Shown here: positions 218 through 58,217 of the stretch, one piece after another
Layout of the letters: each line of letters begins with the position of its first letter
Numbering within the stretch: the stretch's first letter is position 1
Sequence record: NC_028881.1
Reading direction: 5' to 3' (one strand)
Length of the DNA stretch: 64,000 bases
Source of the DNA: Escherichia phage vb_EcoM-VR5
The notes under the pieces: model-generated
Seen by the model: only the letters and a program-made list of their open reading frames with translations
Databases searched by the model: none
What the model was told of the DNA's origin: nothing
Program-made: the position numbers and the translations under genes

Positions 218-442
218 TTAACAGCTACTTGGATACCAGATTTTACCATCAGCTTGGGCAACGAAGGTGCGGCCAGCTTCTTCACCATAACAAGAGCTAT
301 TCAGCCAATCTTCAAGACGAACTTCGCCGTCATAATCGTCGAGCTCGACACCGAAATTTTGGGCAGAAGCCATATCTTTAACTTTCTTATACAATGCGGC
401 CAGTTCAAGAGCAGCTTTTTCCAATTCATTAATATCAGACAT
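218..442 (-). CDS. Small protein, member A of a five-gene paralog array (C-terminus ...WYPSSC)
   Basis: 74 aa ORF; tight tandem packing with the neighbours; shared C-terminal aromatic-SS-x-C tail. Confidence 0.55.
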   Translation of the reverse strand: MSDINELEKAALELAALYKKVKDMASAQNFGVELDDYDGEVRLEDWLNSSCYGEEAGRTFVAQADGKIWYPSSC

Positions 443-451
443 TTTTATTCC

Positions 452-673
452 TTAGCAAGACATAGAGGAGGTAAACCAAAAACCTTCACCATCATTAATA
501 CCATAATCACTGCGAACCCAGTCGTAATCTTCGTACTCAGGATTCTTCGGTGAAATATATTGTCCACGACCAGAAACATGGAAATCTTCACCAGTTTCAT
601 CAGCCACGCTCTGACCTTCACGAACTAAAGCTCGGATTTGGTCTTCAATTTCTCTAACAGTTTTAGTAGTCAT
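452..673 (-). CDS. Small protein, paralog B (C-terminus ...FWFTSSMSC)
   Basis: 73 aa ORF, about 10 nt from its neighbours; conserved C-terminal tail. Confidence 0.55.
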   Translation of the reverse strand: MTTKTVREIEDQIRALVREGQSVADETGEDFHVSGRGQYISPKNPEYEDYDWVRSDYGINDGEGFWFTSSMSC

Positions 674-682
674 TTTATTACC

Positions 683-880
683 TTAACATTCGTAAGAGGA
701 GGACACCCAAGAGGTACCGCTAATAGTAATGCATCCATTATAAAGCTCAATATGCCTGTCTAAGTCACGAACACCATCGATATAGATATCAGCTTCTTCA
801 CGTTCTTCTTTACAAATCTGGATAACATTTTCAATAGCCGCTTTAGCAGTACGGATTGCACAATCTAATTCACGAGACAT
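683..880 (-). CDS. Small protein, paralog C (C-terminus ...SWVSSSYEC)
   Basis: 65 aa ORF; conserved C-terminal WVSSSxEC. Confidence 0.55.
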   Translation of the reverse strand: MSRELDCAIRTAKAAIENVIQICKEEREEADIYIDGVRDLDRHIELYNGCITISGTSWVSSSYEC

Positions 881-889
881 AATATTTCC

Positions 890-1171
890 TTAACATTCAG
901 AAGAAGAGGACACCCAACCACCTTTTTCAAGGTCGGTGGTGTAGTCGTGGGTGTTAACGATAGCGTATTGAGGCTCACCATAGTTTTCCCAATGAGCAAG
1001 GTCGGCTTTCAGGGCGCCAGGAGAATAATAGTCACCGCCCATACCGCGAGCAGGGTATATATTAAAATGAGTCTCATATTTGTCTGCAATTTCCTCAGCT
1101 CGGCGAATAGCTTTATGGATTTCATTTACTGCGTTAGCCAGTTCTTTATTTTTACTGTAATCGTTCATCAT
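890..1171 (-). CDS. Small protein, paralog D (C-terminus ...GWVSSSSEC)
   Basis: 93 aa ORF; conserved C-terminal tail. Confidence 0.55.
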   Translation of the reverse strand: MMNDYSKNKELANAVNEIHKAIRRAEEIADKYETHFNIYPARGMGGDYYSPGALKADLAHWENYGEPQYAIVNTHDYTTDLEKGGWVSSSSEC

Positions 1172-1180
1172 AATAAACCC

Positions 1181-1474
1181 TTAACACATTTGAGAAGAGG
1201 ACACCCATGCACCAGAAGTAACGATACCGTTTTCATCGACTTCGCCACCATTGTTTTCAATTTCATCACGCATCCAGCGAGAGCATTCATAACCAACCGG
1301 ATAATAGGTGCGTCCAGAACCATATTCACCTACATCAAACGAGACACCATACTTATCTGCAATAATAGTAGCTTCATTCTCGATATGGTCTTGGGCCCGA
1401 AGAAGTTTGCTGATAGCGTCCGTTGCGGTTTGAACGTCATTGTATTCAGGGATAGCGATTTCAATTTTATTCAT
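1181..1474 (-). CDS. Small protein, paralog E (C-terminus ...AWVSSSQMC)
   Basis: 97 aa ORF; conserved C-terminal tail. Confidence 0.55.
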   Translation of the reverse strand: MNKIEIAIPEYNDVQTATDAISKLLRAQDHIENEATIIADKYGVSFDVGEYGSGRTYYPVGYECSRWMRDEIENNGGEVDENGIVTSGAWVSSSQMC

Positions 1475-1824
1475 GATTTACATTCCTTAATAAAGGTTTC
1501 AAGTTCATTACATTTGGTTTGTTTTACATACTCATTATAATTAGCCATAGCTAAAGCATATCTCTTACGGGCCGGGGCATTCAAGGCGTTTGTGTAACAG
1601 ATATCATACACAACCGGGATAAAATAGGCCACAACAGCCGGAGCAATTATCATAAAGAAGCCCATCTCAATAGGCATGACTCCCTCGATTGCCGCCATAA
1701 CCGTGGTCATTACCAGACCAACTAGACCGCCGAGCATACCGGTAGCAAGGCCTGCAAATAAAGTAATGGCTATATCGTAATCGGCTAATGCGTAACTAGG
1801 GTCGGTTTTACTAGGCTTATGCAT
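1471..1824 (-). CDS. Predicted small membrane protein (hydrophobic core, 2-3 TM segments)
   Basis: ORF 1471..1842; start probably the internal Met (MHKPSK) at 1824, which minimises overlap with the upstream gene; long hydrophobic stretch. Confidence 0.45.
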   Translation of the reverse strand: MHKPSKTDPSYALADYDIAITLFAGLATGMLGGLVGLVMTTVMAAIEGVMPIEMGFFMIIAPAVVAYFIPVVYDICYTNALNAPARKRYALAMANYNEYVKQTKCNELETFIKECKS

Positions 1825-2353
1825 TTTGGGCCTCTTTAGCATATTCGCGGCATTCTTTAATAAAACGATTAAGCTTACGTTGCTGTTTACGACTTTCTAA
1901 TGTATACTCGTCGGCCAAAATAATAAGCTCACCTTTATCGTAATTTTTAATATCAGAGTAAGATGGCCGCCGGTCAACCATTCCAAATAAATCACCGTTT
2001 TCTAGCGCCGCATAGCATACTAAATGATAATCGTCATCAGCATTAATAAGCTGCTTATAATCGCTAGGTTCGTTTAAAGCGTACACCGAATATCTTACTC
2101 CGGCGAATTCAACTCGCTTTATATCTAATCCAAGGTCAATAATTTCTAAAGCTTCTGCAAAAGAAAGGTCTTCTGCTAAAGCAAAAATAAAAGGTAATTT
2201 AGTAGTATAGCTACGGTTATTTGTTCTGCTTAAGAAATCATTAGAATAACCTAGGTCCTGGCGAATTCTATAAAGAACTGCATTAGTTTCATGGGCAAGA
2301 CCGCTATGTTTAAACCAATCAATATTTGATATAAGGTCATCATATAAGCTCAT
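1817..2353 (-). CDS. Hypothetical protein (178 aa)
   Basis: ORF with GGAGAGGAGA ribosome-binding site upstream of the ATG at 2353. Confidence 0.5.
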   Translation of the reverse strand: MSLYDDLISNIDWFKHSGLAHETNAVLYRIRQDLGYSNDFLSRTNNRSYTTKLPFIFALAEDLSFAEALEIIDLGLDIKRVEFAGVRYSVYALNEPSDYKQLINADDDYHLVCYAALENGDLFGMVDRRPSYSDIKNYDKGELIILADEYTLESRKQQRKLNRFIKECREYAKEAQNA

Positions 2354-2376
2354 AATATTCTCCTCTCCTCCAAAGA

Positions 2377-2394
2377 GGGAGACCGAAGTCTCCC
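2377..2394 (-). terminator. Stem-loop terminator (GGGAGAC-tetraloop-GTCTCCC)
   Basis: GC-rich hairpin with 4-nt loop directly downstream of the 2402..2995 gene. Confidence 0.45.
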
Positions 2395-2401
2395 AGTAAC
2401 A

Positions 2402-2995
2402 TTACTTAAGTGAATTGATGTAGTCTTCGATATCAGCTGAAGTCGTATCCATTCCAACTTGAGGGCCTTTAAACGTTTCTACACGCATCAGGGTATCTTC
2501 AATATCAATCTTAGTCAGTGCAGCGATTTCAACAACATCGTCAGCAGTAGCAATACCTAATGCAGCCATATTACGAGTTTCACGGATGTATTCAAGCTTA
2601 ACTGCTAGTTCTTGTCGAGAGTCATCAAGTTCCTTAACCTTAAGCTTGATTTCATTACGCATTTCGATATAATCGTCGGCTTTCTTACGAAGTTGAGTAG
2701 CTGTACGACGATAAAGGAGGCCGAGTTTAGCATGTACCTGGACATCGGCACCTTCAGCAATCAATTTACGGATTTCACGTTCTTTAGAACTAGCCAGTTG
2801 GTCCTTTTCGTTAGCGAGTTCACGAATACGTTTTTCTTCACTTACAGACTTAACGTGAGCAGTCTGGAGCTCGGTAATTTTATCAATTAGAGTAGAAGCA
2901 GCTTTAGTGTATTGGTCTTCAATTGACAGGTTCTGGGCCATTGCGGTACCAAGTTTAGAGCGGATGAATTCAACGATTTTCTTTAAAGTGTTCAT
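2402..2995 (-). CDS. Coiled-coil protein, possibly PspA/IM30-like
   Basis: 197 aa, predicted almost entirely heptad-rich alpha-helix; N-terminal amphipathic helix followed by long charged coiled coil resembling the PspA/Vipp1 pattern; driven by early promoter P1. Confidence 0.45.
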
Positions 2996-3033
2996 AGTAT
3001 TTCCTTCAGTGGTTGTTTCGTTTTGATAGGTCT

Positions 3034-3062
3034 ATAGTATCACGTTTAAAGGTGATGTAAAC
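3034..3062 (-). promoter_or_regulatory. Early sigma70-like promoter P1 (GTTTAC-N17-TACTAT) with A/T-rich upstream region
   Basis: Reverse strand reads GTTTACA..17 nt..TACTAT followed by the conserved leader TAGACCTATCAAAAC. Confidence 0.6.
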
Positions 3063-3096
3063 TGCTTTGTGAAATTATTTTTGGTCTAACCCCCTA

Positions 3097-3118
3097 AAAG
3101 GAGACCGAAGTCTCCTTT
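3097..3118 (-). terminator. Stem-loop terminator
   Basis: AAAGGAGAC-CGAA-GTCTCCTTT hairpin followed by a T-run on the minus strand. Confidence 0.5.
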
Positions 3119-3153
3119 CATTATTTACAGGTCTTTTCGAACTGGGCAGTGAA

Positions 3154-3708
3154 TCAGTTCTTGTAGAACCGGAATGGGTTTATGTGGAAGGCTAACATGG
3201 CTTTATGGATTTTACGAGACAAAAGACTCTTAAGCTTCCAGCCACAGTACACGCGAAGGTAAAATGTGATTCCACCAACCTTAAGATAAGGAACTGAAGC
3301 AAATACACCCCAGGCATCATCATTCCACATCCATAACCAACCATGGTGAGCTTTATCAGGAGAACCAGATTCTACATCAGGATTACCGCGATAATGGAAT
3401 TCTGAACTACAATCACGTCCTAGTTTATGGTAAGCAAAGTTATAAGCTTTATTTCGCCATAGCCAAGCTACTCTCTGGAGATAAACACCACCAGGCATTT
3501 TCCTGATTTTAGCCCAACGTTTAATATGACCTTTGTCGCCGTCAATTGGATTATCGTATGTCATCATCCAATCAAAGCCATAAGGCAATTTACCGGTCTT
3601 TTTATTGTAGAAAGGAACTACAAAAGGCGCAAGGATAACGGCTAGAACCATAGAGATAAAATCTAGTGGGACCAACAGAATCCAACTCAAATATTTTAAA
3701 AGTTTCAT
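3154..3708 (-). CDS. Membrane-anchored protein (N-terminal TM helix, Trp/His-rich C-terminal domain); late-expressed
   Basis: 184 aa ORF; exact TATAAATA on the minus strand (3735-3742) about 27 nt upstream of the ATG. Confidence 0.55.
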   Translation of the reverse strand: MKLLKYLSWILLVPLDFISMVLAVILAPFVVPFYNKKTGKLPYGFDWMMTYDNPIDGDKGHIKRWAKIRKMPGGVYLQRVAWLWRNKAYNFAYHKLGRDCSSEFHYRGNPDVESGSPDKAHHGWLWMWNDDAWGVFASVPYLKVGGITFYLRVYCGWKLKSLLSRKIHKAMLAFHINPFRFYKN

Positions 3709-3734
3709 ATTATTTCCTAAGTTAGTTTACTACA

Positions 3735-3742
3735 TATTTATA
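3735..3742 (-). promoter_or_regulatory. Late promoter (TATAAATA)
   Basis: Exact T4 late-promoter octamer on the minus strand upstream of the 184 aa gene. Confidence 0.55.
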
Positions 3743-3743
3743 C

Positions 3744-3771
3744 AAAAAAGGCCCAACCTTTCGGAAGGGCC
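3744..3771 (-). terminator. Rho-independent terminator (28-nt element, identical copy at 49509-49536)
   Basis: GGCCC..GGGCC hairpin followed by a T-run on the minus strand; lies downstream of the tRNA cluster. Confidence 0.55.
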
Positions 3772-3780
3772 TTTAACCTA

Positions 3781-3941
3781 GGGTAACCTTGTCGGGGTTC
3801 CACCTGCTAGGCAAGTGTTCGGTGCGCCGTTTCAGCTGTGATATAAGGGGGCATTAACAAAACATAAAGATTTATTAATGCCAGTCCTTAAACAGAGAAC
3901 TTCAGTCCGACGACTTACCGGTAGCGACCCGGTTTCTTGTT
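3781..3941 (-). ncRNA. Possible small structured RNA downstream of tRNA-Arg
   Basis: No ORF; several local hairpins (for example GGCATTAA..TTAATGCC); lies between tRNA-Arg and the terminator; by analogy to stable RNAs in T4 tRNA clusters. Confidence 0.2.
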
Positions 3942-4017
3942 TGGTCGAGACAGTAGGGATCGAACCTACGACCTAGGACTTAGAAGGTCCTTGCTCTTCC
4001 TTCTGAGCTATGCCTCG
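3942..4017 (-). tRNA. tRNA-Arg (anticodon UCU), CCA encoded
   Basis: Manual cloverleaf: acceptor CGAGGCA/TGTCTCG, D-stem GCTC/GAGC, anticodon stem AGGAC/GTCCT with loop CTTCTAA, T-arm GTAGG-TTCGATC-CCTAC, 3' ACCA. Confidence 0.8.
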
Positions 4018-4021
4018 TGTT

Positions 4022-4150
4022 TGTTCATAGCGGGGTGGACTCGAACCACCAATATTAAGTCACTCATGCTCCAAGCATGCTAGGGCACTTACCCCGGACG
4101 GAATCGAACCGCATCTACAATACCTATCGCCATGATAATTTAAAATAAGT
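4022..4150 (-). ncRNA. tRNA-like elements (two T-arm-like motifs) that do not fold into canonical cloverleafs; degenerate tRNAs or stable RNA
   Basis: GGTGG-TTCGAGT-CCACC and TGCGG-TTCGATT-CCGTC T-arm-like motifs, but no matching acceptor stems found by hand; includes a CATGC-TTGGA-GCATG hairpin. Confidence 0.3.
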
Positions 4151-5066: not shown

Positions 5067-5447
5067 TTAACCTTCATCAACAATAGTATGGGTATTAGCA
5101 TTAACAATCTGCCACCAGTCAAAACGGTTAGAACCATATTGAGGCTTATTCTCGTTTTCTTTAATGATATCACGCAGTTCATCTTCGGTAGCGGCTTTTG
5201 CGATTAGGTCTGCATAACCGCCACGGGGATAATAGCTATCGCCAGCAAAGAGTAAAAAGTTTGTTTTGATATTCTTGAATTCTTCAAGAGTAATAACCGT
5301 TCCAGATGGTTGAACAATATCTACGTAACTATATCCTAATTTCTGGGCTTCATTTACTGCTTCAAGCAGGGTGTCATGGGCCCATCCGATTTGACAATCC
5401 GGTTTTTCAGATGGATTTGCTTGATAATCTGCGTACACTTTATACAT
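5067..5447 (-). CDS. Hypothetical protein (about 126 aa)
   Basis: ORF 5067..5495; start probably MYKVYADY at 5447 with AAAGGTGAG ribosome-binding site, stop of the upstream gene overlapping. Confidence 0.5.
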   Translation of the reverse strand: MYKVYADYQANPSEKPDCQIGWAHDTLLEAVNEAQKLGYSYVDIVQPSGTVITLEEFKNIKTNFLLFAGDSYYPRGGYADLIAKAATEDELRDIIKENENKPQYGSNRFDWWQIVNANTHTIVDEG

Positions 5448-5448
5448 T

Positions 5449-5634
5449 TTACTCACCTTTAGAGATTTTATCCATAACGAAAGAGATTGAACCAATTAAA
5501 AATGCCACTACTAAAGAGATTGTATTCTCGGAAGTTGTAAGCAAATCCAACATGAATCCTGCAAACATGCTAAAACCAAAAGCAGTAATAGCAACAAGCG
5601 CAGTAACATTTCTAATTAATTCACAACGTTTCAT
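5449..5634 (-). CDS. Small membrane protein (two hydrophobic helices)
   Basis: ORF 5449..5646; likely start MKRCEL at 5634 preceded by GGAGAA; first gene after promoter P2. Confidence 0.5.
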   Translation of the reverse strand: MKRCELIRNVTALVAITAFGFSMFAGFMLDLLTTSENTISLVVAFLIGSISFVMDKISKGE

Positions 5635-5670
5635 TTTATTCTCCAATCACTCATTTGTTTTGATAGGGCT

Positions 5671-5700
5671 ATAGTATCACCACTAGAGCCCATTGTAAAC
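5671..5700 (-). promoter_or_regulatory. Early promoter P2 (GTTTAC-N18-TACTAT) with conserved leader
   Basis: Reverse strand GTTTACA...TACTATAGCCCTATCAAAAC. Confidence 0.55.
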
Positions 5701-5702
5701 AA

Positions 5703-5975
5703 TTATTTTAGATAAATTGCATATTTTTTATAGCCAGCTGTCTCGTGGCGCAACCCTTTGTCATTAGCAAAGCGTTCAATATTATTAATTTGATTTTGGT
5801 CGAGTTCTGAAATATCAAATACAAAAAAGTTTCGCTTATTGCCTAAAGTTACATGATTAGTCAAATCGATGTTATAGAGATGATTTATATTATCAATCAT
5901 GGCCTTAACAGATTTGCTAATTTTTACTTCTTCATTAAGAATAGATTCAGCGATAAATTCTTGATAGGTTTTCAT
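5703..5975 (-). CDS. Internal-protein-like capsid-packaged protein with N-terminal capsid-targeting sequence MKTYQEFIAE
   Basis: ORF 5703..5987; internal Met gives MKTYQEFIAE, matching the T4 internal-protein capsid-targeting sequence that the prohead protease cleaves after Glu. Confidence 0.65.
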   Translation of the reverse strand: MKTYQEFIAESILNEEVKISKSVKAMIDNINHLYNIDLTNHVTLGNKRNFFVFDISELDQNQINNIERFANDKGLRHETAGYKKYAIYLK

Positions 5976-5976
5976 T

Positions 5977-6201
5977 TTATTCTGCACCAGCAGCTTTCAA
6001 AAGTTTTTTAAGATTGGCTGTGCCCTGAGCAGAAAATGTGACCTTGCCACCTTTTTCACTGATAGAACCAACCAATTTAGCAAGTTTATCATTAGGAATT
6101 TTTTTAAAATCAGCCAATGTTCCATCAAAGGTTTTTGAAACAAAAGGCAGTTCGTCTTCGTGTCTTTTAGCTTCGGTAATAAATTCTTGATAAGTTTTCA
6201 T
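5977..6201 (-). CDS. Internal-protein-like capsid-packaged protein with capsid-targeting sequence MKTYQEFITE
   Basis: 74 aa ORF starting MKTYQEFITE; AAGGA ribosome-binding site; driven by early promoter P3 with an overlapping late TATAAATA. Confidence 0.65.
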   Translation of the reverse strand: MKTYQEFITEAKRHEDELPFVSKTFDGTLADFKKIPNDKLAKLVGSISEKGGKVTFSAQGTANLKKLLKAAGAE

Positions 6202-6234
6202 TTTAAATCCTTAAGTAGTTGTTTTGATAGGTCT

Positions 6235-6263
6235 ATAGTATCATATTTATAAATGCTGTAAAC
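6235..6263 (-). promoter_or_regulatory. Early promoter P3 (GTTTAC-N17-TACTAT) with a late TATAAATA embedded in the spacer (6244-6251)
   Basis: Reverse strand GTTTACAGCATTTATAAATATGATACTATAGACCTATCAAAAC. Confidence 0.55.
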
Positions 6264-6275
6264 AACTTTTTGAAA

Positions 6276-6953
<678 letters not shown>

Positions 6954-35780: not shown

Positions 35781-36208
35781 TGTTCCTTATCCCTGATGAT
35801 TACGAATTAACTCTAGAAAGTGTAGAGGCCAAAATTCCAGAAGCACAGGGACGTTTTGCTGCTCTTTCTGAAGCCCTCGAGAAAAGCGATATAAATAATC
35901 TTGTAGAGAACATGATTGCTGATGGTGATATTGATACAGCTATTGCCATCGCCTCTTTGAATGAAAATATGGCTCTTAACGAATTTATCGTTAAGCACGT
36001 CTCCTCTAAAGGTGAGCTTACTCGTACTAAAGATATTAAAACCCGTCAACGCAACGCCTATCAAACGACTGGGTTATCTAAAGCAAAACGCCGTCAGATT
36101 GCTCGCAAAGCATCTAAAACCAAGCGTGCTAATCCATCTACTCAAGTACGTGCCGAACGTAAGCGTAAAAAAGCTCGTTCTAAACGTAAAGCCTTTGGAC
36201 TTAACTAA
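35780..36208 (+). CDS. 68: gp68 prohead core protein
   Basis: 142 aa with basic C-terminus; T4 order. Confidence 0.8.
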
Positions 36209-36843
36209 TGAAACCTGAATTGCTCATCGAACATTGGGGACAACCAGGTGAAATTATCGATGGGGTTCCTATGTTGGAATCTCATGATGGAAAAAATTCT
36301 GGACTTGCCCCAGGCCTTTATATAGAAGGCATATTCATGCAAGCCGAAGTAGTTAACCGTAATAAACGTCTTTATCCAAAACCTATTTTGGAAAAAGCGG
36401 TAGCCAACTATATGGCTGAACAGGTTGCTACTAAACAAGCTTTAGGAGAATTAAACCATCCGCCGCGTGCTAACGTTGACCCTATGCAAGCCGCTATTAT
36501 TATTGAAGATATGTGGTGGAAAGGTAATGACGTTTATGGACGTGCTCGTATTATTGAAGGCGACCATGGTCCTGGTGATAAACTAGCTGCTAATATTAGA
36601 GCCGGTTGGGTGCCTGGTGTTAGTTCTCGTGGTCTAGGTTCTTTAACCGAAACCAATAAAGGATATAAGCGTGTAAACGAAGGTTATAAATTAACCGTCG
36701 GTGTTGATGCAGTATGGGGCCCTTCTGCTCCGGATGCTTATGTAACGCCGAAACAAATTACAGAATCACAAACGGTAGAAACCGATACCAGTGCCGATGA
36801 CGCCTTTATGGCTCTCGCAGAGGCCATGAAAAAAGCGTTATAA
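36208..36843 (+). CDS. 21: gp21 prohead core scaffold protease
   Basis: 211 aa; T4 order 68-21-22. Confidence 0.9.
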   Translation: MKPELLIEHWGQPGEIIDGVPMLESHDGKNSGLAPGLYIEGIFMQAEVVNRNKRLYPKPILEKAVANYMAEQVATKQALGELNHPPRANVDPMQAAIIIEDMWWKGNDVYGRARIIEGDHGPGDKLAANIRAGWVPGVSSRGLGSLTETNKGYKRVNEGYKLTVGVDAVWGPSAPDAYVTPKQITESQTVETDTSADDAFMALAEAMKKAL

Positions 36844-36873: not shown

Positions 36874-37689
36874 ATGCTTAAAGAACAACTGATCGCCGAA
36901 GCACAGAATATTGATGCTTCCGTTGCTCTTGATAGTATTTTCGAATCAGTTAATATTTCTCCGGAAGCAAAAGAAACTTTCGGCACTGTATTCGAAGCTA
37001 CCGTCAAGCAACACGCCGTGAAACTGGCTGAATCTCACATCGCTAAAATCGCTGAGAAAGCGGAAGAAGAAGTTGAGAAAAATAAAGAAGAAGCTGAAGA
37101 TAAAGCTGATAAGAAAATCCAAGAAGCTGCTGGTCGTTTCCTTGACCACGTCGCTAAAGAATGGATGGCTGAAAACCAGCTGGCTGTTGATAAAGGTATT
37201 AAAGCCGAACTGTTCGAATCCATGTTGATGGGTATGAAAGAACTGTTTGTTGAACACAATGTGGTTGTTCCAGAAGAAGCAGTAGATGTTGTTGCTGAAA
37301 TGGAAGAAGAACTGGCTGAACAGAAAGCCGAAACCGCTAGTCTGTTCGAAGAAGTTTCTAAGCGTGATGCTTATATCAATTATGTCCAACGTGAAGTTGC
37401 GTTGACTGAAGCAACTAAAGACCTGACTGAATCCCAGAAAGAAAAAGTTGGTTCTCTGGTAGAAGGCATGGATTATTCCGATGCATTTGGTAAAAAAATT
37501 GGCGCTATCGTTGAAATGGTTAAGGGTCAGACCGACGTTGAAAAACCAATCACTGAAGCCGCTATAAATAAAACTGAAGACGATGCTGCAGCACTGAATT
37601 ATATTTCGGAAGCAGTTGAAGAAAAAGGCGCTAAGCCTACCCTGTCCTTCGCGGACCTGTCTGCAATCGCAGCATCTCGAATTTCTTAA
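36874..37689 (+). CDS. 22: gp22 prohead core scaffold protein
   Basis: 271 aa, highly acidic helical protein; T4 order. Confidence 0.9.
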   Translation: MLKEQLIAEAQNIDASVALDSIFESVNISPEAKETFGTVFEATVKQHAVKLAESHIAKIAEKAEEEVEKNKEEAEDKADKKIQEAAGRFLDHVAKEWMAENQLAVDKGIKAELFESMLMGMKELFVEHNVVVPEEAVDVVAEMEEELAEQKAETASLFEEVSKRDAYINYVQREVALTEATKDLTESQKEKVGSLVEGMDYSDAFGKKIGAIVEMVKGQTDVEKPITEAAINKTEDDAAALNYISEAVEEKGAKPTLSFADLSAIAASRIS

Positions 37690-39615: not shown

Positions 39616-39645
39616 ATAGTAACACGTGAGAACCTTGCTGTAAAC
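39616..39645 (-). promoter_or_regulatory. Early promoter P4 (GTTTAC-N17-TACTAT) with conserved leader
   Basis: Reverse strand GTTTACAGCAAGGTTCTCACGTGTTACTATAAACCTATCAAAAC. Confidence 0.55.
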
Positions 39646-39687: not shown

Positions 39688-40968
39688 ATGGCAAAGATTA
39701 ACGAATTACTGCGCGAGTCAACAACTACTACCAGCAACTCATTGGGTCGCCCTAATCTTGTTGCTTTGACCCGTGCTACCACTAAACTAATTTATCGCGA
39801 TATCATCGCTGAACAGCGTACAAACCAGCCTATCGCTGCGTTATACGGTGTCAAATACCTTACCCCTGATAATGAATTTAGCTTCCAGACCGGTGCTACT
39901 TACGGTGGTGAAGTTGGTTCTAAAGACCGTGAAACTATCCCAGAATTAACAGATAAGTCCCAGGCTATTGCCAAGGGTGGCTACTTTAAGTATCAGAATG
40001 TGGTTTATAAGGCTTTGGTTGCAAGCCCACTCGCATCTACTAGCGCCATAGATTTGTCTGATGCTCTCCAAGAAGGTTTGGTGTCATTAACTTGCCGTCT
40101 TGTCCCTGATGCAGCTCATACCGAGAAATTCGAAGCTGGAGATGTTGAAATTAGTAATGCCGTGTTCCAGGTCAATAAATGGAACGCACCAGTTAAATCT
40201 CGTAAGCTGAAAACGGCTTTGACTGTAGAACTAGCCCAGGATATGGAATCTAATGGCTTTGATGCTCCAGCATTCCTTGAAGACCTCCTGGCTACAGTAA
40301 TGGCCGATGAAATTAACAAAGATGTTCTGCAGTCATTGATTACCGTATCTAAACGTTATAAAGTTACTGGTGTTTCTGATAACGGTATTATCGACCTTTC
40401 TTATGACTCTGCACCAGAATCTGCTCGTAAGCTGTACGAAATGGTTTGTGAAATGAATTCCGAAATCCAGAAAACAACTTCTTATTCCGCTACATTTGTT
40501 GTAGCTTCTTCACGTGTTGCTGCTATGCTTGCTGGTTCAGGTTGGTTAAAACACAAGCCGGAAGATGAGGCTTGGCTCCCGGAAACCGCGTATGGTTATT
40601 TGATTAATGGCTTACCTGTGTTCTGTGATGTGAATAGTCCATTGGATTATGTTACCGTAGGCGTTAAAGAAAACTATGGTGGTAATGAAGTTGTTGGTTC
40701 TATTTTCTATGCGCCGTATACTGAAGGCCTAGATTTAGATGATGAAGAACACGTCGGTGCTTATAAGGTAATTGTCGACCCAGACAGTTTACAACCTTCT
40801 ATTTCTCTGATGGTTCGTTATGCGTTGTCTGCCAACCCTTATACCGTAGCCAAAGATGATAAAGAAGCCCGTGTTATCGATGCAACTAATATGGACTTGA
40901 TGGCGGGCCAGAGCAATATGTCTTATCTGCTTGGTGTTAAATTGCCTAAAATAATTTATGAGGCGTAA
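39688..40968 (+). CDS. 24: gp24 capsid vertex protein (copy 1)
   Basis: 426 aa; gp23-related fold; position after gene 23. Confidence 0.9.
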   Translation: MAKINELLRESTTTTSNSLGRPNLVALTRATTKLIYRDIIAEQRTNQPIAALYGVKYLTPDNEFSFQTGATYGGEVGSKDRETIPELTDKSQAIAKGGYFKYQNVVYKALVASPLASTSAIDLSDALQEGLVSLTCRLVPDAAHTEKFEAGDVEISNAVFQVNKWNAPVKSRKLKTALTVELAQDMESNGFDAPAFLEDLLATVMADEINKDVLQSLITVSKRYKVTGVSDNGIIDLSYDSAPESARKLYEMVCEMNSEIQKTTSYSATFVVASSRVAAMLAGSGWLKHKPEDEAWLPETAYGYLINGLPVFCDVNSPLDYVTVGVKENYGGNEVVGSIFYAPYTEGLDLDDEEHVGAYKVIVDPDSLQPSISLMVRYALSANPYTVAKDDKEARVIDATNMDLMAGQSNMSYLLGVKLPKIIYEA

Positions 40969-42249
40969 ATGCAAAAGATTAACGCACTAATCCATGAATC
41001 AACTCTGACGGCGGCCAACTCGGTCGCTCGTCCTACTCTTCTCTCATATACTAAAGCTACTAACAAACGTATCTTTAAATCACTTGTAGCCGAACAAAAG
41101 ACACGCCAGCCTGTGGCGGCGCTTTATGGTATTCGTGTTCTGAACCCAGCAGATAAAATGACTTATCTTGGCGGCGCAACGTTTGCTGGTGAAATTGGTA
41201 TGTTTGAACGTTCTCAGATTCCAGAGGTAGTAGGTCCTAATGAAGCTTATGTCGTCGGTGATATGTTCCAATTTGAAAATGTTGTTTTCAAAGTACTAGA
41301 AGCATCTCCTTTCGCCGGTACAGCCGAAACTGAGATGGGTGAAGTTATTTCTGAAGCTATTGCTGCTGGTCATATTCGTATGGTTTCTGATGCGGCTCAG
41401 ACTTCTAAATTTGAAAAAGGTCATCCTGAGATTGCCGAAGCCGGATTCCGTATCGATAAATGGCAGACTGAAGTTAAATCTCGTAAGTTAAAAACTTCAT
41501 TAACTGTAGAACTAGCCCAAGACCTAGAATCCAATGGATTCAATGCCCCAGGATTTATCGAAGATATTCTTGGAATCCAGATGGCAGAGGAAATTAATAA
41601 GGACGTACTTCAGTCATTGATTACTGTAAGTTCCCGTTTTAAAGTCCAAGGTGTTTCTGAAAAAGGTGTTCTTAACCTTACAGACCCACAGTATGATAAT
41701 GCCCAAGACCGAGCTCGTACATTGTATTATTATATGTGTGAAATGAACTCAGCGGTCCAACGTAATACATCATTCGCTGGTACATATGCCGTAGCTAGTT
41801 CCCGTTGTGCCGCTATTCTTGCCGCGTCCGGCTGGGTCGAGAAAAAAGATGACCAAGACGAATTAGCTTATGGTGTTCTGAAGAACGGTCTACCACTTTA
41901 TGCTGATGTGAATAGTCCGTGTGATTATGTTATCGTCGGTGTGAATGCAGATATTGGTGAAGGACAGACGGTCGCATCTTTGTACTATGCGCCTTATGTG
42001 GAAGGCCTGGACAACGTAGATGATGAGGGTGATACTTCTGTAGGTGAATTCAAGGTTATCGTTGACCCTGAAAGCTTACAGCCTACCGTCGCCTTGTTGG
42101 CTCGATATGCACTGACAGCAAACCCGTATACCGTTGCCAAAGATGATAAAGAAGCTCGTATTATTGATGGGTCCGATATGGATAAGATGGCTAACCAAAG
42201 TCAATTGAGTTCTTATCTTGGTGTTAAACTTCCACCACTAGAAAAATAA
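40969..42249 (+). CDS. gp24 paralog (copy 2), tandem duplicate
   Basis: 426 aa; clearly homologous to copy 1 along the whole length but substantially diverged (shared blocks WQTEVKSRKLKT, TVELAQDLESNGF, ANPYTVAKDDKEAR). Confidence 0.85.
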   Translation: MQKINALIHESTLTAANSVARPTLLSYTKATNKRIFKSLVAEQKTRQPVAALYGIRVLNPADKMTYLGGATFAGEIGMFERSQIPEVVGPNEAYVVGDMFQFENVVFKVLEASPFAGTAETEMGEVISEAIAAGHIRMVSDAAQTSKFEKGHPEIAEAGFRIDKWQTEVKSRKLKTSLTVELAQDLESNGFNAPGFIEDILGIQMAEEINKDVLQSLITVSSRFKVQGVSEKGVLNLTDPQYDNAQDRARTLYYYMCEMNSAVQRNTSFAGTYAVASSRCAAILAASGWVEKKDDQDELAYGVLKNGLPLYADVNSPCDYVIVGVNADIGEGQTVASLYYAPYVEGLDNVDDEGDTSVGEFKVIVDPESLQPTVALLARYALTANPYTVAKDDKEARIIDGSDMDKMANQSQLSSYLGVKLPPLEK

Positions 42250-58187: not shown

Positions 58188-58217
58188 ATAGTACCACATC
58201 CTTGTGGTGTTGTAAAC
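58188..58217 (-). promoter_or_regulatory. Early promoter P6 (GTTTAC-N18-TACTAT)
   Basis: Reverse strand GTTTACAACACCACAAGGATGTGGTACTAT immediately downstream of the alt stop. Confidence 0.5.

Follow-up and report, generated by a model that had tools for sequence, protein, structure and literature searches.

Two putative T4-type internal-protein cassettes between 57B and trna.4 in a Dhakavirus-group phage, with a late-promoter motif in the spacer of their early promoter

The T4 internal proteins (IPs) Ip1, Ip2 and Ip3 have unrelated sequences beyond their leader and each blocks a distinct GmrSD enzyme, and a like role has been proposed for other proteins of the Ip loci (PMC12373910). IPIII that lacks the leader still works in trans when supplied from a plasmid (PMC9391042). 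Residues 1-10 of IPIII are enough for packaging into the head, with targeting governed by residues 4 and 7 and processing by residues 8 and 10; gp21 recognises the motif L/I-X-E and cuts after the glutamate, and the gp22 core is the structure that is thought to bind the capsid-targeting leaders (PMC9026906, a review of Black's work). The polymorphism of the IP loci is credited in later papers to Repoila et al. 1994 (PMC2839356; PMC3012670), and PeSL-like elements, which combine a promoter with a stem-loop, may confine the shuffling of IPs to two loci (PMC2839356; PMC4122927; PMC3012670).

The window analysed here, a single stretch of 64,000 nucleotides, belongs to the Dhakavirus (JS98/IME08) group of T4-type phages; over positions 5400-6800 its best matches at the DNA level are ~90-92% identical. 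Two small ORFs, ORF-A and ORF-B (Table 1), are flanked on the same strand by 57B, 57A and homologues of genes 1, 3 and 2 upstream, and by trna.4, trna.3, trna.2 and the tRNA-Met and tRNA-Arg genes downstream. The order 57B - IP(s) - trna.4 is that of T4, 57B - ipI - trna.4, so that the pair occupies one of the two T-even IP loci, in the same position as the T4 GmrSD inhibitor IPI/IPI* and between the same early promoter and hairpin cassettes that flank ipI. The 57B homologue belongs to the Acb1 anti-CBASS family and the IP cassettes therefore adjoin another counter-defence gene. It is a full-length member of that family, labelled 'RNA ligase' by PHROGs and in several GenBank records.

Table 1. 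Positions of the IP genes, their promoter elements and related features in the 64,000-nt window.
Feature	Positions	Strand	Details
ORF-A	6201-5977	minus	74 aa, starts MKTYQEFITEAKRHED (MKTYQEFITEAKRHEDELPF in longer form); leader MKTYQEFITE
ORF-B (Ip9, internal head protein)	5975-5703	minus	90 aa, starts MKTYQEFIAESILNEE (MKTYQEFIAESILNEEVKISK in longer form); leader MKTYQEFIAE
T4-early-type promoter of ORF-A and ORF-B	6263-6235	minus	GTTTACA 6263-6257, 16-nt spacer, TG-n-TACTAT with TACTAT 6240-6235
TATAAATA, T4 late-promoter consensus	6251-6244	minus	within the early-promoter spacer, 42 nt before the ORF-A ATG
68-nt promoter cassette, upstream bound of IP array	6221-6288	minus	85% identical to the copy at 3020-3087
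68-nt promoter cassette, downstream bound of IP array, drives trna.4	5657-5724	minus	GTTTACA...TACTAT 5700-5671; hairpin
68-nt promoter cassette, further copy	3020-3087	minus	from repeat comparison
57B homologue, Acb1 anti-CBASS family	6276-6731	minus	Pfam PF23474, E 7.4e-59; conserved left flank
trna.4 homologue	5449-5634	minus	phrog_1692, E 2.5e-34; trna.4 in IME08 and T4; conserved right flank
gp21 prohead protease (Peptidase_S77)	36208-36843	plus	Pfam PF03420, E 1.3e-102; expected leader-removing enzyme
gp22 scaffolding core protein	36874-37689	plus	Pfam PF25623 T4_CASP, E 7.6e-90

Both proteins begin MKTYQEFI(A/T)E, as had been noted in the initial annotation of this DNA. When all six frames of the 64 kb were scanned for M-K-x(0-2)-[YF]-x-[EKD]-[FY] at a methionine only these two ORFs matched, so that their pairing is not due to chance. 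The stop of ORF-A is separated from the start of ORF-B by 1 nt, so that ORF-B lacks a promoter of its own and would be co-transcribed with ORF-A. A GTG at 5987 was considered as the start of ORF-B and rejected, because the ATG at 5975 is conserved in the homologues and places the leader at the N-terminus.

The leader of ORF-B is identical to that of T4 IPII and IPIII, which both start MKTYQEFIAEA, and the leader of ORF-A differs from it at one residue (A9T). The initial description of the sequence as the leader of the T4 internal proteins therefore holds for IPII and IPIII (MKTYQEFIAE) but not for IPI, which has a longer and different leader of its own, MKTFKEFTSTTTPVSTITEA. Tyr4, Phe7, Ile8 and Glu10 are all kept in both ORFs and each leader ends in the I-x-E motif of gp21 followed by a small residue (ITE↓A in ORF-A, IAE↓S in ORF-B), in agreement with the capsid-targeting role first proposed for it. 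With the predicted cut after E10, the mature part of ORF-A would be 64 residues long with a pI of 9.6 and that of ORF-B would have a pI of 8.0-9.3, compared with 9.0-9.65 for the mature T4 IPs. A possible second gp21 site is present in ORF-B at L-N-E15, and the homology of this protein to leaderless relatives begins a few residues past it. Across more than 100 phages the leader is constant residue for residue while the cargo diverges, indicative of selection on packaging and processing. In the first ten residues, the gp21 site and the small, basic mature proteins the two ORFs thus resemble IPII and IPIII, and by analogy they would fall in the same class of packaged and injected accessory proteins. 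They differ in that their cargo is unrelated and in that they occupy the IP locus flanked by 57B and trna.4 and not that of ipII and ipIII.

The window also encodes head-assembly machinery that the mechanism proposed below would need, namely gp21 and gp22 together with the gp20 portal, gp67, gp68 and gp23. The gp21 protease (36208-36840, plus) is 100% identical to its counterpart in Salmonella phage vB_SalM_ABTNLsp5. ESCO10 matches the window in 57B and in the promoter variant described below, and Ip9 shares 98.9% identity with the Ip9 of phage NC-G. Judged by these matches, known Dhakavirus lineages are combined in the window as a mosaic. Two tandem ORFs of 426 residues at 39688-40968 and 40969-42249 (plus) correspond to the duplicated gp24 vertex genes (24a/24b) of the IME08 annotation.

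ORF-A and ORF-B are of an already catalogued kind and the element is typical of T-even-type genomes, the new details being limited to a rare promoter variant and a wider distribution of the Ip9 cargo domain. ORF-B matches phrog_7673, 'internal head protein', with an E-value of 7.2e-57. It is the same protein as Ip9 of RB15, K3, RB32 and IME08 (names from Repoila et al. 1994), with 80-96% identity over all 90 residues: 95.6% to Ip9 of IME08, where the gene is labelled Ip9, 'similar to RB15 and K3 Ip9', 81% to that of RB32 and 80% to that of RB15. For ORF-A the PHROG family matched is phrog_8765, 'internal virion protein', with an E-value of 3e-27; homologues with 75-99% identity are present in 106 phage records, from phages of Escherichia, Klebsiella, Shigella and Salmonella. 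The ORF-A homologue is unannotated in the IME08 record (HM071924.1), where tblastn places one between Ip9 and 57B (NC_014260 70938-71159). In the ESCO10 record (OM386655.1) the product names are displaced: ORF-A appears there as 'prohead core protein', and the 57B homologue bears the name 'portal vertex of the head'.

The content of the interval between the anchors 57B and trna.4 varies. It holds ipI alone in T4, ORF-A alone without Ip9 in ESCO10, ORF-A and Ip9 in the window, UGJNEcP3, QL01 and vB_EcoM_005, a 58-aa ORF followed by ORF-A and Ip9 in IME08, IME281 and IME341, and the same three with Ip7 in addition in WG01; other combinations are found in two IMG/VR contigs. Between one and three leader-bearing cassettes are present in the relatives, and T4-early-type promoters bound every array compared. 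The hypervariability that had been suggested for the pair is thus borne out by this anchored comparison, the locus being the T4 ipI site and its cassettes differing among relatives. The last 35 residues of the 'Ip7' of OLB35 are 80% identical to the C-terminus of Ip9, and another IP consists of the N-terminal half of Ip9 followed by unrelated sequence. Such chimeric IPs suggest that cargo domains have been altered internally, either by recombination or by frameshifts.

Beyond the leader ORF-A and ORF-B could not be aligned with one another by BLASTP at E<=100, consistent with the earlier statement that their downstream parts are unrelated. The cargo of neither ORF gave a meaningful match to mature T4 IPI, IPII or IPIII. 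Scans of both proteins against Pfam, NCBIfam and PADLOC returned nothing meaningful, and sequence searches of the PDB gave only noise (E>0.2). The AF2 model of ORF-B has a pLDDT of 84.5 and the cargo is predicted to adopt an alpha-beta-beta-alpha-beta-beta arrangement over residues 21-88. A Foldseek search against BFVD gave one match at E<=0.001, to a protein of 535 residues. Neither cargo matched a known inhibitor fold, and no similarity was seen to the characterised GmrSD inhibitors IPI*, Ip2 and Ip3. For T4 Ip2 and Ip3 the GmrSD variants that they inhibit have been defined (PMC12373910). No mention of Ip9, and no reported function for it, was found in the literature searched, which also contained no report of Ip9 or ORF-A as a processed protein of the mature head.

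The Ip9 cargo family is small, an exhaustive HMMER search having recovered no more than 9 representatives. In the Kagunavirus/Guernseyvirinae siphoviruses the homologues are leaderless proteins of 66-74 residues with 43-49% identity to approximately residues 19-90 of Ip9 (window 5703-5945, minus). A 72-aa Kagunavirus ORF matches phrog_7673 with an E-value of 3e-27, over profile positions 20-90 only, and the Kagunavirus gene heads a block of small ORFs that is divergent from the replication genes. In the two loci examined from these siphoviruses the homologues lie at 3004-3222 and 3007-3225. In Kuttervirus (Ackermannviridae) the Ip9 cargo forms the C-terminal ~80 residues of a protein of 964 residues (31% identity, profile E 3e-8). 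N-termini resembling the T4 leader are seen in this protein (MAIPSFLNFLEE↓S) and in the products of the next two genes downstream (MKPFIEYFKE↓Q, MKGFKDFLTE↓A); in Salmonella phage allotria the three genes are at 364-3258, 3331-3900 and 3910-4149. The Ackermannviridae also encode a gp21-like protease with 35-37% identity. Taken as sequence likenesses, these features suggest a T4-like capsid-targeting system in the Ackermannviridae, and in the Kuttervirus locus a second phage family may have a counterpart of the T4 internal-protein loci.

The DNA chemistry of Kagunavirus and Kuttervirus differs from that of the T-even phages, and the presence of Ip9-cargo homologues in them argues against a target specific to restriction of glucosyl-hmC DNA. 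Their occurrence there is in keeping with an effector that is required as infection begins. It is a tentative and rather doubtful extension of this that the Ip9 cargo is a portable first-strike effector which differs in its mode of delivery, as a leader fusion in the Straboviridae, as part of the 964-aa protein in Kuttervirus and as a leaderless gene in Kagunavirus.

The promoter upstream of ORF-A lies in one of three copies of a 68-nt cassette (60-85% identity to the reference copy) that bracket the tRNA/trna.x block and the IP array, and the promoter named P3 in the initial annotation fits the third copy (3020-3087, 5657-5724, 6221-6288). The pattern GTTTAC-N16-18-TAYWAT, which the copies fit, occurs 5 times in the window compared with 0.3 expected; two more GTTTAC-N-TACTAT promoters are at 39616-39645 and 58188-58217 (minus). 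The spacer of the IP promoter, at 16 nt, agrees with the early consensus TTTACW-N17-TAYWAT of Comeau 2014 within the N16-18 allowed in the scan. In their repetition, in the T4-early-type promoter with its -10 in a hairpin and in flanking swappable small ORFs, the cassettes resemble the PeSL-like cassettes already described (Arbiol 2010; Comeau 2014). The copy in front of ORF-A is unlike these in that it lacks the hairpin and contains a late-promoter consensus, a variant that is shared with ESCO10 only.

In UGJNEcP3, IME08, WG01, QL01, vB_EcoM_005, IME281 and IME341 the spacer is AAGGTCTATAGGCATGA, the first part of which pairs with ATAGACCT downstream of the -10 to form the hairpin. The folding energy of this promoter in the relatives is -18.1 kcal/mol (z -5.4), and similar values were obtained for the trna.4 promoter of the window (-16.9 kcal/mol, z -4.05) and for the T4 ipI promoter (-17.4 kcal/mol, z -4.0). 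For the IP promoter of the window the value is -6.6 kcal/mol (z -1.7) and there is no stable stem-loop around the -10. The left arm is replaced by a sequence that creates TATAAATA. The motif lies in the spacer between GTTTACA and TACTAT, as was initially reported. The motif is found 19 times in the window compared with 7.8 expected, a count reached in 0 of 100 shuffles, and at the homologues of gp18, gp19, gp20, gp22 and gp24 it is 26-48 nt from the start, so that at 42 nt from the ORF-A ATG the exact copy in the spacer is placed like a working late promoter. A clean late-promoter motif is also present on the minus strand at 3735-3742, after a GC-rich hairpin and a T-run and 26 nt before an ORF of 184 residues (3154-3708, minus) with a hydrophobic N-terminus, which looks like a late gene within an otherwise early region.

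The late-promoter motif is not conserved at the IP locus. Among 50,697 phage records the variant is carried only by the window and ESCO10, and the exact promoter variant had no match in IMG/VR. TATAAATA was not found near the IP genes in the seven close relatives or near T4 ipI, nor at any point between the tRNA genes and gene 2 of UGJNEcP3. Packaging of IPs in this group therefore does not require the motif, which may be neutral. No statement on the early or late timing of T4 ip transcription was found in the open-access literature. It is quite possible, if somewhat doubtful, that the motif is a neutral by-product, left in an AT-rich spacer when the hairpin arm was exchanged through recombination or mutation, with late IP being supplied by read-through or from the sigma70-type promoter. 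The exact 8-mer, on the other hand, would be expected only ~5e-4 times in a given 16-nt spacer, as estimated from the shuffle rate, and its distance from the ATG matches that of real late genes in the window. T4 late promoters, which are transcribed in a gp55/gp33/gp45-dependent manner, need little beyond the late element, so that this one is probably functional. The same change also abolishes the hairpin, and expression is therefore likely to be altered either way. Given that the motif is exact and spaced like the real late promoters of the window, the dual early and late promoter proposed in the initial annotation is plausible for this phage. Our own reading of the sequences is that replacement of the hairpin arm in one lineage removed an attenuator and created a probably functional late promoter.

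It is very probable that ORF-A and ORF-B are two T4-type IP cassettes at the hypervariable ipI locus that work in the following way. The two genes would be transcribed together from the promoter at 6263-6235. During prohead assembly the ten-residue leader would tie each protein to the gp22 core and gp21 would cut past Glu10, at I-T-E↓A in ORF-A and I-A-E↓S in ORF-B. The small basic mature proteins would then remain in the head with the DNA, enter the host along with it and act in the new cell ahead of any phage gene expression, where the most likely role for each would be the stoichiometric inhibition of a first-line nuclease, for example a type IV restriction enzyme of the GmrSD type. Late transcription that depends on gp55 is probably gained in the window phage and ESCO10, where TATAAATA stands in for the left hairpin arm; with the attenuator hairpin lost as well, more IP would probably be available while heads are being assembled. 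For ORF-A and ORF-B, entry into the head, cleavage, injection and the anti-restriction target are all assigned by analogy with the T4 proteins.

A physical or structural job for packaged IPs, in DNA charge, condensation, ejection or the morphogenesis of the core and head, would account for the small size and basic pI (8.0-9.6) of the mature forms without any specific host target, and for the failure of either cargo to match a known inhibitor fold. It would also be in keeping with the ~1000 IP molecules embedded in T4 DNA (PMC3012670) and with the morphogenetic part suggested for IPIII together with gp22 (PMC9026906). We consider it improbable, however, since presence and absence vary in close relatives, with ESCO10 lacking Ip9 and WG01 adding Ip7, a pattern usual for accessory genes that serve in particular hosts. 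Specific GmrSD targets are known, moreover, for each of the three T4 IPs (PMC12373910), and the siphovirus Ip9 cargo, as a free leaderless gene of the early region, cannot be a head component delivered by a leader. It seems very unlikely that the two proteins work chiefly in the cytoplasm after fresh synthesis early in infection, with an inherited leader and little packaging in this phage. The strong T4-early-type promoter directly upstream, the activity of leaderless IPIII in trans (PMC9391042) and the leaderless Ip9-cargo homologues in early-looking gene blocks would all suit such a role, but the leader has stayed constant in more than 100 phages despite the diverging cargo, the gp21/gp22 machinery is present in the window and the additional late promoter suggests that the genes are expressed while heads assemble.

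IPs are the first phage products to face host immunity, each characterised IP disabling a specific restriction enzyme, and their cataloguing helps to predict the host range of therapeutic T4-like phages. Neither ORF is new in kind, Ip9 having already been named and ORF-A annotated in more than 100 genomes; both are candidates for inhibitor screens like those carried out on T4 Ip1-3. Sensible starting points are the spread of the Ip9 cargo across phage families and the Kuttervirus locus with its similar leaders. If the Ip9 cargo is indeed a portable effector, its target would be a widespread defence and not a restriction enzyme specific to glucosyl-hmC, and the Ackermannviridae would use T4-like capsid targeting and gp21 processing for injected proteins. 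The switch from the hairpin to TATAAATA could be a simple evolutionary route to a higher dose of packaged IP.
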